Part shown: positions 220 through 50,139 of the stretch, piece by piece | Numbering within the stretch: position 1 is the stretch's first letter | Layout of the letters: each line of letters begins with the position of its first letter | DNA from: a virus | IMG/VR virus record: IMGVR_UViG_3300025162_000043 | Span: 1-64,000 of that record | DNA: 64,000 bases | Strand: one strand, 5' to 3' | Program-made: the position numbers and the translations under genes | Notes under the pieces: generated by a model | The model's database searches: none | Seen by the model: the letters and a program-made list of their open reading frames with translations, nothing else | Told to the model about the DNA's origin: nothing

Positions 220-1119
220 ATGATTATAGATAGTGAGATGTGGAAAAATGAAAATGGAAGTTGGTGTAGGAAATGCGGATTCTGCCATAAAATCATAATT
301 CATTCTTCCTTACAAGTTTGTAGTTCAGCATATAAAAAACATCGTTTGTGTAGAAAATGTTCCAAAGCAGGGAAGCATTTCGAACCCAATCAAAAGTTAA
401 TTGACGATGAGATTATTTGGAAGGATTTTCTATCTTCTAAATGGTGTAGAAAATGCCCTAATTGTTCAACGATCATTGGTCATACAACAATAAAAATTTG
501 TATTCGTGGGGTTAGGCAAAATCTGGATTGTTTTAGTTGTCGGGAGACAGGAAATAAAAATCATAGGTTTGGTACTACGGCTAGTTCGGAAACACGCAGG
601 CGGCTATCTCTTTCTCGTACAGGAACTAAACATTATTTTTTCGGAAAACATCATTCGTTAGATACTAAGAAAAAATTATCTTTAGCAGCCAAAAGAAGAA
701 CGCCACAGGAAATAGAAAAACGTATAATTAGTATGAACAAGAATAGATTCATACGAAAACCATATACTTTTCCCGACGGAAAACCAACTATATTTTTACA
801 AGGTTATGAGGCATGGACAATTGACTATCTCTTATCAAGTTCCTTATCATCACAAGATATTAAGACCGAGCACGCCGATAAGCCGAAAATTAAATACGAA
901 TTATCGGGTTCACCAAAAACTTATTACCCAGACTGTTTTCTGCCATCATCAAATACAATAGTAGAAACAAAATCTCCGTGGACATGGAATCAAAATTTGG
1001 CAATGAATAAGGCTAAAATAAGTAGTTCCATTGATTGTGGGTTTAATGTTAGAGTAATCATATGGAATCGAGATCATAAGTTAGTAGAAGATATCACATA
1101 CCTAAAAACAGTACCTTGA
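220..1119 (+). CDS. Free-standing homing endonuclease-like protein (CxxC repeats, NUMOD3-like motifs, C-terminal PD-(D/E)XK)
   Basis: Two WCRKC..C repeats; HYFFGKHHSLDTKKKLS; YYPDCFLPSSNTIVETKS. Confidence 0.75.
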   Translation: MIIDSEMWKNENGSWCRKCGFCHKIIIHSSLQVCSSAYKKHRLCRKCSKAGKHFEPNQKLIDDEIIWKDFLSSKWCRKCPNCSTIIGHTTIKICIRGVRQNLDCFSCRETGNKNHRFGTTASSETRRRLSLSRTGTKHYFFGKHHSLDTKKKLSLAAKRRTPQEIEKRIISMNKNRFIRKPYTFPDGKPTIFLQGYEAWTIDYLLSSSLSSQDIKTEHADKPKIKYELSGSPKTYYPDCFLPSSNTIVETKSPWTWNQNLAMNKAKISSSIDCGFNVRVIIWNRDHKLVEDITYLKTVP

Positions 1120-4866: not shown

Positions 4867-4944
4867 TGGTGGCACCGAAGGGATTCGAACCCTCACTGTT
4901 TCGGGTTTGGGCCGAACGCCTCCTACCAATTGGGCTACAGTGCC
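4867..4944 (-). tRNA. tRNA-Leu(CAA), short variable arm, C33
   Basis: Cloverleaf, GGTTCGAATCC T-arm, TTCGG-CCCAAAC-CCGAA anticodon arm, encoded CCA. Confidence 0.8.
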
Positions 4945-4953
4945 ATTTATTTC

Positions 4954-5001
4954 TGGTGGTCTCGCAACAAATCACCACTACTACTTTTACATCAAGGGAC
5001 C
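4954..5001 (-). pseudogene. Internally deleted tRNA remnant
   Basis: GGTCCC..GAGACCACCA acceptor-like ends, only 48 nt, no anticodon arm. Confidence 0.45.
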
Positions 5002-5007
5002 ATAATT

Positions 5008-5081
5008 TGGAGCATGTGGAGGTAGTCGAAACCCCATCTCAAGTGTGGAAAACTCGCATAATGCCGTTATACTACACATGC
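5008..5081 (-). tRNA. tRNA-Gly(TCC)
   Basis: GCATGTG acceptor, loop TTTCCAC, ends TCCA. Confidence 0.85.
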
Positions 5082-5087
5082 ACAAAA

Positions 5088-5161
5088 GGGAGGACCAGGA
5101 TGGTTACGCTCCATCGCCACAACTCTACCAGGGTCGTATTCTGCTATTAAACTACAAGTCC
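5088..5161 (-). tRNA. Degenerate tRNA, anticodon GGT (Thr?)
   Basis: D-arm and loop CTGGTAG present; atypical T-loop; ends CCC. Confidence 0.5.
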
Positions 5162-5162
5162 G

Positions 5163-5237
5163 TGGAGCATCGTGAGGATTTCGAAACCTCGGCCTTCACA
5201 TTGGGAATGTGACGTTCTGCCTCTGAACTAACGATGC
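5163..5237 (-). tRNA. tRNA-Gly(CCC)
   Basis: TCACA-TTCCCAA-TGTGA arm, ends TCCA. Confidence 0.9.
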
Positions 5238-5426
5238 ATTTACAAAGAACAATATTTGAAAGCGTTGGCTCACATAACTCTGAACCAATAAGAGTAGGAG
5301 TTTAAAGCAGTCATCCCCGACCTGGCAGATATATCGTGATCTGCAACGATTGGTTTCTAGTACCAACCATGTAACTGTTGAGTTTTTAATTTAAGGACTT
5401 TCGCTATACACTCAACTAACCTAAAT

Positions 5427-5497
5427 TGGAGCATCTTGTATGATTTTACATACATTTGCTACTTGGAAAGTAGCCGTCTTAATTAAACGATCAATGC
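5427..5497 (-). tRNA. Divergent tRNA-Gly(TCC)
   Basis: GCTAC-TTTCCAA-GTAGC arm, ends TCCA, aberrant T-arm. Confidence 0.6.
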
Positions 5498-5554
5498 ATT
5501 TACAAAGAACAAATTGATTGGACATTATTGGCATCGCCATAACCCAATCAAAAA

Positions 5555-5629
5555 TGGTACGGACACCGAGTCAACGCTCTCGGACCTGAACCTTGGCAAA
5601 GTCCCATGATACTCTTTCACCATGCCCGC
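5555..5629 (-). tRNA. tRNA-Gly(GCC), atypical T-loop and discriminator
   Basis: GCGGGCA acceptor, loop TTGCCAA, ends ACCA. Confidence 0.7.
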
Positions 5630-5637
5630 ATTAAAAT

Positions 5638-5711
5638 TGGTGCCAACTCTCGGTTACGCTCCGAGGCATCTTCCTTATGAAAGAAACAGGCTACTATTAC
5701 ATCAAGCTGGC
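5638..5711 (-). tRNA. tRNA with CAT anticodon (Met or Ile2)
   Basis: GCCAGCT acceptor, loop TTCATAA, ends ACCA. Confidence 0.7.
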
Positions 5712-8395: not shown

Positions 8396-8791
8396 ATTTT
8401 TCCTTTCGTTGCGGAAACCCCGATGGCTTTAGCCTCGGGGAGGAGCAACGAAATATAATTAATAATTTCTGTTGACATTCTTCTTAATTCCTGTTATACA
8501 TATCACAGTTCTTTGATACATGGTTTGGATAGTAGAAAATAATTGCTTCTATCCAGTAAAATCAATCAAGCATCGTTTTGTGAATAGACCAGAAGTCACT
8601 CCGCTTTGCGGAGGAACCGTTATGCAGGTCTTTGACTCACAATCAACATCCTCCTCGTTATCCGTTAAGGATAAGCTGGAAGGCAGGCCACGGTCAATTG
8701 GCCAATCGTCTGTAAATCTTTCTTGAGTTATGTTAAGCATAAGCATTAGAGTCTGGCAAGCCCCGACCCTTCAGGGTCGCGGGTAGTTGAC
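8396..8791 (+). mobile_element. 396-nt tnpB-less IS200/IS605 cassette: left end + sigma70 promoter + omegaRNA
   Basis: After TTCAT; TTGACA-N17-TATACA; scaffold homologous to the tnpB 3' end; ends GGGTAGTTGAC; near-identical to 46752-47147. Confidence 0.88.
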
Positions 8792-9102
8792 AATCTTCCA
8801 GTACCATTACAATCAGTGCATTTAACACTGGGATTAGTGCTAAAAGAATAATATCCATTTCCCGAACACTTACAACACTTAGGACTGACATAAAAACGTT
8901 GCAACTGTTCAACATGAATATATCGTGCGATGAATTGGTCCACAGTCTTAATTTCGACAGGAACAAACGTTGATTTCCAATGATTTTTCACCATGAGTTC
9001 CAGCATTTCAGCGTGTGAAGGTTTGTGGTCAATGAATACGGACTCTGACGCCCACTCATTCCACACTTCGTAAATTTTATGTTTCTTTGATAATTTAATC
9101 AT
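8746..9102 (-). CDS. Hypothetical protein with DnaJ-like CxxCxGxG zinc finger; C-terminal 14 aa derived from the IS cassette
   Basis: CCKCSGNG...CTDCNGTG; tail STTRDPEGSGLARL. Confidence 0.65.
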   Translation of the reverse strand: MIKLSKKHKIYEVWNEWASESVFIDHKPSHAEMLELMVKNHWKSTFVPVEIKTVDQFIARYIHVEQLQRFYVSPKCCKCSGNGYYSFSTNPSVKCTDCNGTGRLSTTRDPEGSGLARL

Positions 9103-30613: not shown

Positions 30614-31013
30614 TGGTGGACCTGCCGAAGATCTGCCCTTCGGGTCTCTATAATAGAAAACTTACAATACTACAAGTTTAGTTCGTTGGTGATTTCTGCC
30701 GTTTACTTACGAACACCTGAGCGGCATATCCATACACTGGTATGTCAGCAGTAATATGATTGGAACCATATCAAGTTTCACCCGCTATAGAGCCGTGGAT
30801 TTTGTAGCGAGTATCCTTATCCACGTCCGAATTATGCCAAAGCCAACTCGAAAACTGACTCCTCAACATCGTTAAGCGACATCTCAAAATCAATTTCTGC
30901 AATCTTATTTAAGCGATTGTCATCTGTCTTCGGTCAGATTTTATGCTGTCCATCCGACCAACCAGCACTTGCATTATAAGCCATCAATCATAGATCGAAT
31001 CTATTACAGGCCC
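30614..31013 (-). ncRNA. ssrA: tmRNA
   Basis: GGGCCTG/CAGGTCC-ACCA acceptor with G3.U70, GATTCGA motif, pk1-like region, tag ORF 30921-30832 ending ELALA*, TTGACA promoter upstream. Confidence 0.92.
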
Positions 31014-48670: not shown

Positions 48671-49407
48671 ATGGCAAAAATAGATTCAAATAATACGTTC
48701 GGTGATTTTTCAAAACGAATTAACCTGTCTTCAGATAGACATAACCTTAAACCTATAGCACCATCACTAACCTTTGAAAAATACCTTATACAATCTATTA
48801 AAGAAGGTAACGCTATACTTGAAGCCGAAAAGAATTCGGTGAATACACCGCCTAAACCTGACTCGGTGAAGTTACCTACCAACCCCTGCACTGAAGTAAG
48901 TAAAAATGCCTACACAAGAGCAAGAATTGAAATCCTGGCAAAGTTAACCCCAATAGCCCGAGGTGTTATTGAAAAAATGGAACGAAATGAATTGGAAAAA
49001 GATAATCGTTACGATAGATTCTGCCAAGCTATCGCCATACTCGGAGATAAATTAAGTGAACAAAAATAGTTATGTTATACATTGACCCATCAAAATTACT
49101 CAGTCGTAAATTCTACGTCCATGACTCAAAAATCATTTATACTGCAATCGGATATGGCCAAAATGAAACCGCATTCATTGTAGGAGAATACCCAGACCCA
49201 GGCTATTTAGCCAAATATAACCGTCTCGTAACCCATAAACTAACCGATTGCAAATTCACTGACTTTGTGCCATCAGCAGTATCTTCACCTTCACCACCAC
49301 CGCCAATTCCACCTTCATGGGATACAGATTCAATTGCACCACCACCGTATCCACCACCACCAATTCCACCTTCATGGGATACAGATTCAATTGCAACTGT
49401 TCCATAG
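48671..49407 (+). CDS. Two hypothetical genes (48671-49069; 49072-49407 with a duplicated Pro-rich tail)
   Basis: TTGACA promoter; PPPIPPSWDTDSIA occurs twice. Confidence 0.6.
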
Positions 49408-49596
49408 CTTTCATTGCAATTGCAACAAACCTAACCCCTTGACCGTTCAAGGGGTTTTTTAATGCCATTGGCTATAAGAAATACTGGCCAGTAAATCTAT
49501 TCTAACTATATGATTCATATCAAGACAGGAAAAAACGGCAGGAACCCCCTGCCGCCAATATGACTAACACCACACCTTAAGGCTTCCAAAATTTAT

Positions 49597-49629
49597 GTTT
49601 CAATCCGCATCCCTTGCGGGATGATATAC
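49597..49629 (-). CRISPR. Solitary CRISPR-repeat-like unit (type I-C-like), not an array
   Basis: GTATATCATCCCGCAAGGGATGCGGATTGAAAC: hairpin plus GGATTGAAAC end. Confidence 0.55.
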
Positions 49630-49635
49630 CGCATC

Positions 49636-50139
49636 TTAAGGCTTCCAAAATTTATGACGGGCTACATCGTATGCTTCTTTAACATTTGACCCGTGTCCAT
49701 ATACGTTCTCGTGACATAATGGATCACAGGGTATGTTATTGCACCAAACCTGTATTCCCGCATCATCTGCAATTACAGTCATTGGCCCATCACAAAGAGG
49801 ACATTTATATATCAGGTTTCCTGTAGTTACCACACGATGATTCAATTTAGCCACTGGAGGCGTCGAAACCACTGGAGGCGGGTTAGACATGGTTTGACGC
49901 ATTACAGTGGCTAGAATAGGCCCTGGCGAATTAGTACAGGCATTACCAGTTACAAGTCTGTAGAGATTTGATGCCTTTCCTCTGCCAGAAGGTTGTGGAC
50001 GAGTACCTGTTTTTACAATAATACCACTCTTAAGGTCATCTTGAAGCAAAAAATAAATTGAAAGCTTCTCTCTGCCATTAGAATCTGCCAATTCAGCTTG
50101 AGTAAATTCACCGTCGGGATATTGTAATGTATTAACCAT
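49636..50139 (-). CDS. Winged-HTH plus Zn-ribbon protein
   Basis: EFTQAELA...GRGKASNLYRL; CPLC...WCNNIPC. Confidence 0.55.
   Translation of the reverse strand: MVNTLQYPDGEFTQAELADSNGREKLSIYFLLQDDLKSGIIVKTGTRPQPSGRGKASNLYRLVTGNACTNSPGPILATVMRQTMSNPPPVVSTPPVAKLNHRVVTTGNLIYKCPLCDGPMTVIADDAGIQVWCNNIPCDPLCHENVYGHGSNVKEAYDVARHKFWKP

Follow-up and report, generated by a model that had tools for sequence, protein, structure and literature searches.

A solitary type I-C-like CRISPR repeat flanked by a duplicated gene end in a freshwater phage: a candidate RNA anti-CRISPR

What is a single CRISPR-repeat-like hairpin doing behind the last gene of a phage gene block, and why is it followed by a second copy of the end of that gene? 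The locus that raises these questions lies in the first 64 kb (64,000 nucleotides; this whole analysed stretch is hereafter termed the window) of a 78,054-bp IMG/VR virus record, which is of freshwater and lake metagenome origin and for which CheckV estimates a completeness of 22%. An earlier note on the window described a gene end, a repeat, the gene end again and a terminator hairpin, and proposed that the product is either an RNA anti-CRISPR (Racr) or a self-regulatory guide. All of these elements are present on the minus strand (Table 1).

The repeat-like unit reads TCATCCC-GCAA-GGGATG-CGGATTGAAAC (49624-49597), i.e., a 6-bp stem followed by exactly 11 nt which end in GGATTGAAAC, a sequence that occurs once in the full 78-kb record. 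The unit begins 9 nt past the stop codon of a 167-aa gene and has an intrinsic terminator downstream; the second copy of the gene end is separated from this terminator by 12 nt (GTTAGTCATATT, 49568-49557). The repeat hairpin and the terminator appear in both the minimum-free-energy and the centroid folds. The 140-nt region as a whole has no extra stability compared with shuffled sequence (z = -0.42), and only the two local hairpins matter. There is no terminator between the 167-aa gene and the unit, and a strong one after the unit. Cas5 is the processing enzyme in type I-C systems (PMC7049708), and a stem with an 11-nt handle is the geometry expected for Cas5 processing into an 11-nt 5' handle; the predicted Cas5-type cleavage point is between 49608 and 49607.

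Table 1. Features of the repeat-like unit and its surroundings, listed in the direction of transcription of the 167-aa gene.
Feature	Positions	Strand	Basis or content
167-aa gene	49636..50139	-	ORF and translation; adjoins the repeat unit on its 5' side
Upstream copy (copy 1) of the 29-nt duplication	49628..49656	-	last 6 codons, stop codon and 8 nt past the stop
Solitary CRISPR-repeat-like unit	49597..49627	-	sequence and fold; 31 nt
Degenerate 5' end ATA	49627-49625	-	part of the repeat-like unit
Core TCATCCC	49624-49618	-	last 6 nt, CATCCC (49623-49618), are the 5' stem arm
Loop GCAA	49617-49614	-	part of the repeat-like unit
3' arm GGGATG	49613-49608	-	part of the repeat-like unit
11-nt handle CGGATTGAAAC	49607-49597	-	3' end of the repeat-like unit
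Downstream copy (copy 2) of the 29-nt duplication	49569..49597	-	overlaps the handle by one base, its final C
Spacer-like segment, 40 nt	49557..49596	-	between the handle and the terminator stem
Intrinsic terminator	49530..49556	-	stem 49556-49534, T-run to 49530; 10 pairs, 6 of them G-C

The 167-aa gene (167 codons, ending ...HKFWKP-stop, with the stop codon at 49638-49636) is the last one of a minus-strand block of small ORFan genes. Five homologues of its product, 41-99% identical, have the C-terminus ...KF..P in common, indicating that the upstream copy of the duplication is native coding sequence. An AlphaFold model (pLDDT 65.5) consists of a winged-helix-like N-domain, a disordered Pro-rich linker and a Cys-rich, zinc-ribbon-like C-domain. 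The similarity of the N-domain to winged helix-turn-helix (wHTH) repressors is weak (53 residues superposed with an rmsd of 1.1-1.6 A; E about 0.01), the only Pfam match of the protein is a sub-threshold, Lar-like one, and none was found in PHROGs. Searches of PHROGs and Pfam assigned no family to the neighbouring genes and matched no known Acr or Aca family among the genes next to the unit. Anti-CRISPR operons are usually closed by a regulator gene, and a wHTH/zinc-ribbon protein at the end of the block recalls such regulators, which is only an analogy. Relatives were found neither in an isolated-phage collection, at the DNA and protein levels, nor by a protein-pattern search of IMG/VR.

Type I-C repeats proper are about 32 nt long, start with GTCGC and stand in regular arrays beside cas genes. 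The unit differs from these and has instead the characters of a solitary repeat: its sequence and fold resemble those of the subtype, no further repeat and no Cas5d or Cas1 gene occurs in the 78 kb, and it is intergenic on a mobile element. The Rfam model CRISPR-DR9 gives the unit 21.4 bits, below its 45-bit threshold (E = 3.8 window-wide), and is the only CRISPR-type Rfam hit in the window. A hairpin followed by GGATTGAAA and then C or T is expected 0.007 times per 64-kb window.

Arrays with closely similar repeats exist in bacteria. In a Verrucomicrobial MAG (G002), the array repeat combines a 7-bp stem with the very handle of the unit, CGGATTGAAAC, and one of the arrays shares a contig with cas3, cas5d and cas8c, which bears out the earlier description of the unit as a solitary type I-C-like repeat. 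A regular array, spaced at 67 nt, is also present in a second Verrucomicrobial genome (G087), and the stem of its repeat, CATCCC/GGGATG, is the same as in the unit; in the consensus repeat of a third (G090), the 5' arm is the same and the 3' arm is a variant. Arrays from gut and other metagenomes (L044 and L080) are equally close to the unit. Overall, the unit is identical to real I-C repeats at 22-25 of 32 positions (69-78%), a likeness which in part exists by construction, as the search patterns that brought up the arrays and relatives came from the unit itself; agreements that were not forced in this way are the first base of the handle, the terminal C and, in L044, the GCAA loop. Compared with the array repeats, the unit lacks the 5' GTCG, reading TATAT(C) instead of GTCGC, and its stem is 1-2 bp shorter. 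An array with exactly the repeat of the window was found neither by an exact-copy search of IMG/VR nor, among the 80 loci listed, most of which are an unrelated terminator beside a tRNA gene, by a metagenome scan. Of the Verrucomicrobiota sampled, 2 of 401 have arrays with the same stem, against 0 of 401 Bacteroidota, which is only a hint on the host.

The same core recurs on other mobile elements. Of the viral contigs found to contain the 17-mer GGGATGCGGATTGAAAC, two (L096 and L098) also carry the 5' arm TCATCCC, here with a 12-nt loop; the units of the two contigs are the same, and this phage (54% GC) has no proteins in common with the window phage (38% GC). The flank-duplication layout of the window recurs together with the core in L096. 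Five other viral contigs with GGGATGCGGATTGAAAC were discarded as they are without a pairing arm and fit a rough, hand-estimated chance expectation. The metagenome scan yielded a further unit (L082), TCATCCC-ATTC-GGGATGCGGATTGAAAC; about 34 nt separate it from a strong terminator, and it lies on a conjugative element, downstream of the gene for a type IV coupling protein. The core TCATCCC-loop-GGGATGCGGATTGAAAC is thus present on three unrelated mobile elements (window phage, L096/L098 and L082) with three different loops, and in alignment all of these units are without the GTCG start of the array repeats. We take the retention of stem and handle alongside a varying loop as the best available sign that the unit in the window would be functional rather than debris. 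The L082 unit (303-345, minus strand) comes from an activated-sludge contig which encodes a TraG/VirD4-like coupling protein, a ParA-like protein and a large N6-methylase, and a handle-like GATTGAAAAC stands immediately 5' of its hairpin; it is a candidate plasmid-borne Racr or Cracr (a crRNA-like RNA of the kind discussed below).

Because of this anatomy, the likeness to real I-C arrays and the recurrence on other mobile elements, the unit is read, with moderate confidence, as a phage-borne solitary repeat unit, a Racr of the RacrIC1 type, which would mimic a type I-C CRISPR repeat over its 3' two-thirds. We infer that the unit is transcribed as the 3' tail of an early operon ending in the 167-aa wHTH/zinc-ribbon gene. 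Host Cas5 (type I-C) would bind the hairpin and cut at its 3' base, thereby releasing an RNA that starts with the 11-nt handle CGGAUUGAAAC, continues with about 40 nt from the phage and ends in the terminator hairpin. This RNA would occupy Cas5 and Cas7 in useless complexes and compete with real crRNAs. The 29-nt duplication would be a by-product of the entry of the repeat, either through array capture or through insertion with target duplication. The host would have a I-C (or I-G) system with a GGAUUGAAAC-type handle; the data are a weak indication of a type I-C host, possibly one of the Verrucomicrobiota.

RacrIC1, the I-C solitary repeat which the unit resembles most, lies 11 nt downstream of acrIC5 in a bicistronic arrangement and inhibits type I-C on its own (PMC10651486). 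Like RacrIC1 and other viral solitary repeat units (Camara-Wilpert et al. 2023, PMC10651486), the window unit is a single, cas-less I-C repeat in a phage. Both are placed directly downstream (3') of a gene in the same transcription unit, which for the window is predicted, and both keep hairpin and handle, so the likeness to Racrs drawn in the earlier note stands (PMC10651486). Unlike RacrIC1, the window unit follows a wHTH/zinc-ribbon ORFan rather than a known Acr gene, has a degenerate 5' end and is flanked by a 29-nt direct duplication. Taken by itself, it extends the list of probable RNA anti-CRISPRs by one, from a large freshwater phage that is uncultured, and the kept stem and handle with the variable loop would mark the part of a I-C repeat that matters for mimicry.

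The duplication requires separate consideration. Copies 1 and 2 are identical at 27 of 29 positions with a period of 59 nt; there is no mismatch in the first 22 nt, and positions 49634/49575 and 49631/49572 account for both differences. The earlier note had a duplication of 22 nt, which is correct for the exact part; the full duplication is 29 nt long, and five nucleotides (ATGCG), located between copy 1 as then described and the repeat, had been left out. An exact 21-mer of the duplication has only these 2 sites in the window, where 0.01 chance matches are expected with 3 mismatches allowed. A tandem duplication of a 59-nt unit was considered as the origin and rejected, as a by-eye alignment of the unit with the 30 nt that come after copy 2 shows an identity of only about 30%. 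In the processed RNA, copy 2 would supply the first 28 nt of the spacer-like part, and copy 1 would be the corresponding target. The Cascade of type I-C reads 5'-TTC (10.1101/2022.06.15.496202; PMC8406640), and some I-C Cascades tolerate only pyrimidines at position -3 (10.1101/2022.06.15.496202). The triplet before copy 1 is GTC, i.e., a purine is at PAM position -3. The G and T of this triplet are part of an Arg/Lys codon which is conserved in all homologues of the 167-aa gene, suggesting that TTC was probably never there.

Several sequencing runs bear on the stability of the locus. In contigs of three other runs, which belong to two studies, the structure is present from end to end with zero differences and is therefore not an assembly artefact. 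Among the public runs listed for this DNA, none is an RNA run. An allele without the unit was not seen in the contigs of the strain runs, which are a material that cannot show absence. In one run from a fifth study (X11), a low-depth contig (depth 3) has an 18-nt insertion at 49596/49597, by which the unit comes to end in three tandem copies of GATTGAAAC, i.e., with two extra copies of the handle. This insertion would shift the register of a guide by 18 nt and would leave a decoy intact. All the strain variants are near-identical and thus provide no evidence of selection within the lineage.

Flank duplications were also sought at other viral I-C solitary repeats, in a set of 47 distinct solitary hairpin-plus-handle units from viral contigs. 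An exact flank duplication of at least 13 nt, starting right after the repeat, is present at 4 of the 47 units; a shifted control gave 0 of 47, with none of at least 8 nt. The duplications are 19 nt (L096), 15 nt (L145), 13 nt and then eroded (L162) and 34-35 nt (L201) in length, and their sequences are unrelated to one another. The triplets in the PAM position of these four are GCC, TTT, TCT and TTC; over the duplications at other units in general, CTT is seen as well, and the lengths vary from 15 to 35 nt. About one in ten viral I-C solitary repeats, in this small sample, is accompanied by a duplication of the insertion site, which is a clue to how phages acquire such repeats. A literature search found nothing that links solitary repeats with target-site duplication, and the recurrent flank duplication is the part worth systematic study.

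One of the four, the L201 unit (IMGVR_UViG_3300032053_000217, about 8700-8840, minus strand), is a canonical 32-nt I-C repeat located within an IS3-family transposase ORF, between the HTH_21 domain and the rve core, with a perfect 34-35-nt duplication, a 67-nt period and TTC before the upstream copy. This arrangement looks like a fresh spacer-repeat-spacer capture. Since the repeat is inside a transposase, a designed RNA gene is not expected there. When the repeat and one copy are removed in silico, the transposase of L201 is not restored, being also broken elsewhere, and the result for L096 is ambiguous. Searches for empty sites corresponding to L096 and L201 returned filled alleles only.

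These observations give some weight to the view that the window unit is a neutral scar, a repeat captured or inserted once and now functionless, whose RNA is not bound by Cas proteins or is ineffective when bound. The L201 unit, within a broken transposase, is a case in which function is not to be expected; in the window, the 5' end of the unit has degenerated, GATTGAAAC has expanded in tandem in one strain variant, and the near-identical variants carry no signal of selection. A scar, however, need not have kept both stem and handle intact, nor would it explain why the core is retained on three unrelated mobile elements with differing loops and why the window unit shares the strand of transcription with the gene before it and precedes the terminator of that gene. 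We regard a neutral scar as rather unlikely.

Whether or not the unit acts as a Racr, the match between its spacer-like part and the adjacent gene end is most simply viewed as a probable by-product of acquisition rather than a designed guide, because of the GTC flank, the duplications at other units and the register shift in X11. Two routes could produce it. In the first, the phage would recombine with a host array via a spacer that matches it (spacer-protospacer recombination) and then exit by recombination between the two repeats flanking that spacer, resulting in spacer-repeat-spacer. A later deletion over the junction of the upstream copy and the repeat would generate shorter duplications and 5'-truncated repeats, as in the window and L096, and would also relieve self-targeting. 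The features of L201 (67-nt period, 34-35-nt duplication and TTC in front) fit this route exactly. In the second, the repeat would be inserted with target duplication, for example if the adaptation machinery integrates off target; duplications that range from 15 to 35 nt in length speak against a fixed integrase ruler.

Recombination between phages and CRISPR arrays has been documented (Varble et al. 2019, cited in PMC7099407), as has off-target spacer integration by Cas1-Cas2, yielding 'neo-CRISPR' (Nivala et al. 2018, cited in 10.1101/148544, PMC7054753). As in the present case, both processes are known to put parts of arrays, or duplications of similar size, in new DNA; in the accounts given by these citing sources, neither is described as yielding a solitary repeat flanked by a duplicated target. 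The order target copy-repeat-target copy might be conceived as the footprint of an undescribed route by which repeats enter phage and plasmid genomes, with the RNA serving as a possible weapon or drive against sisters that lack the insertion; we offer this combined proposal as a speculation that is probably wrong in this full form.

The second half of that speculation can be weighed by itself. In its specific form, the RNA would have a full-length match only to the uninterrupted site and, in I-C hosts, direct Cascade-Cas3 at insertion-less rival phages, a conflict or homing-like drive which we consider improbable. It includes the proposal, to which we give the same low credence, that the upstream copy of the carrier is too short and too mismatched to be cut. 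The self-match in the window does extend over 27 of 29 positions and then stops, and viral mini-arrays typically have one spacer against a close relative that often matches the carrier imperfectly (PMC7099407). Mini-CRISPR arrays (Medvedeva 2019, PMC6858448; Iranzo 2020, PMC7099407) share with the window locus the cas-less repeat and the imperfectly self-matching segment. They have at least two repeats, however, and their spacers hit PAM-flanked sites in relatives, whereas the window locus has one repeat and a non-PAM GTC flank, and no relative was found. With a purine at -3 and a conserved Arg/Lys codon which argues that TTC never occupied this position, cutting of a sister phage would not be expected; no relative or empty-site allele was found by the protein patterns in IMG/VR or in the strain-run contigs. 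A guide would moreover lose its register in the X11 variant, and the full 34-35-nt self-match of L201, next to TTC, would be suicidal.

The earlier note suggested that the 21-nt self-match could allow binding without cutting. In such a scheme, Cascade loaded with the RNA would bind copy 1, leave it uncut and repress either read-through or a promoter of the unit itself. An identity of 21-22 nt on the PAM-proximal side followed by mismatches is indeed what regulators of the CreA/CreR type have, and a promoter-like site (TTGGAA-16-TATCAT) overlaps copy 1. That site is weak and at chance level (4 found, 3.0 expected), however, and its start point would fall in the loop of the repeat hairpin. GTC is not a I-C PAM, the register is shifted in X11, and duplications recur at other units with varying length and PAM triplet, one of them within coding sequence. 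The suggestion is thus not upheld, and we rate self-regulation as quite improbable. As a more general caution, a 'spacer' of a solitary repeat that matches its own neighbourhood should be called a designed guide only after its PAM has been inspected and an empty site compared.

Regulation of the host is a related proposal, to which we assign a very small probability: the spacer-like part would pair with a cas or creT promoter of the host, so that host Cascade represses its own immunity. Viral crRNA-like RNAs (Cracr; Liu et al.) are built from a repeat-like unit with a spacer-like segment behind it and a rho-independent terminator at the end (10.1101/2024.10.29.618823), and the window unit has exactly the layout of CracrVA1. 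Cracr and CreA/CreR, in which a second degenerate repeat may take the place of the terminator, have this layout in common with the window unit and L082, and share with the window unit a spacer-like part that is partly complementary to a nearby site. In addition, G002 contains, between cas3 and cas5d, a host crRNA-like unit whose loop and 3' end, GCGGATTGAAAC, are those of the window unit. Cracr spacers, however, copy host CreA/CreR spacers and target PAM-flanked host promoters (10.1101/2024.10.29.618823), for which 9 or more PAM-proximal matches are the yardstick, whereas the spacer-like part in the window copies the end of the phage's own gene, and this target is without a I-C PAM. A search of three Verrucomicrobial I-C genomes gave a single good match, in a reductase-like ORF, where AAC precedes and a PAM is absent. 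This is an exact 20-nt match between window 49580-49599 (minus strand; last 3 nt of the handle and first 17 nt of copy 2) and G002:C11:1108-1127, antisense in an ORF for a CysJ-like flavoprotein reductase. It was rejected as a target and is probably a coincidence, in view of the coding sequence, the AAC flank and a genome composition that inflates matches.

Huge phages often carry Cas genes, and the unit could in principle be a guide or a remnant from a CRISPR-Cas system of the phage itself, encoded outside the record, which by the CheckV estimate covers less than a quarter of the genome. The 78 kb that were searched in this 22%-complete record are without Cas5d, Cas1 or a second repeat, and a phage-borne system is as remote a prospect as regulation of the host. 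Finally, that an ordinary hairpin resembles a CRISPR repeat by chance is scarcely credible: the Rfam E-value is high, and very many windows were scanned, so that a few such chance matches are expected somewhere, but the expectation in a single window is far below one, the 11-nt handle and the 6-bp stem are each found unchanged in real I-C arrays, and the core appears again in L096 with the same flank-duplication layout.

Some minor observations were made in the course of the analysis. In a Terrimicrobiaceae MAG (L007; JBGTLQ010000168.1, 5162-5193, minus strand), a solitary repeat-like unit, GGTCCTCCCGCAAGGGAGGTGCGGATTGAAAC, occupies the gap between cas3 and cas5d-cas8c of a I-C locus and is divergent from cas5d; it is a candidate host regulatory crRNA-like RNA of the CreR/CreA type in Verrucomicrobiota. 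One I-C array of G002 (G002:C316, L228) has the same spacer twice, two units apart. The window itself contains a tRNA gene cluster and a tmRNA-like gene (4867-5711 and 30614-31013). ARAGORN counts 3 tRNAs in the cluster and Rfam up to 6; the tmRNA-like gene, at 48.9 bits, is just above threshold and is without an ARAGORN call. Close to the repeat-like unit, at 49286-49395, two 53-nt tandem copies are 92% identical with a 57-nt period; they are located inside the overlapping ORFs 49072-49407 (plus strand) and 49256-49468 (minus strand), and one strand encodes a Gly/Gly-rich repeat.
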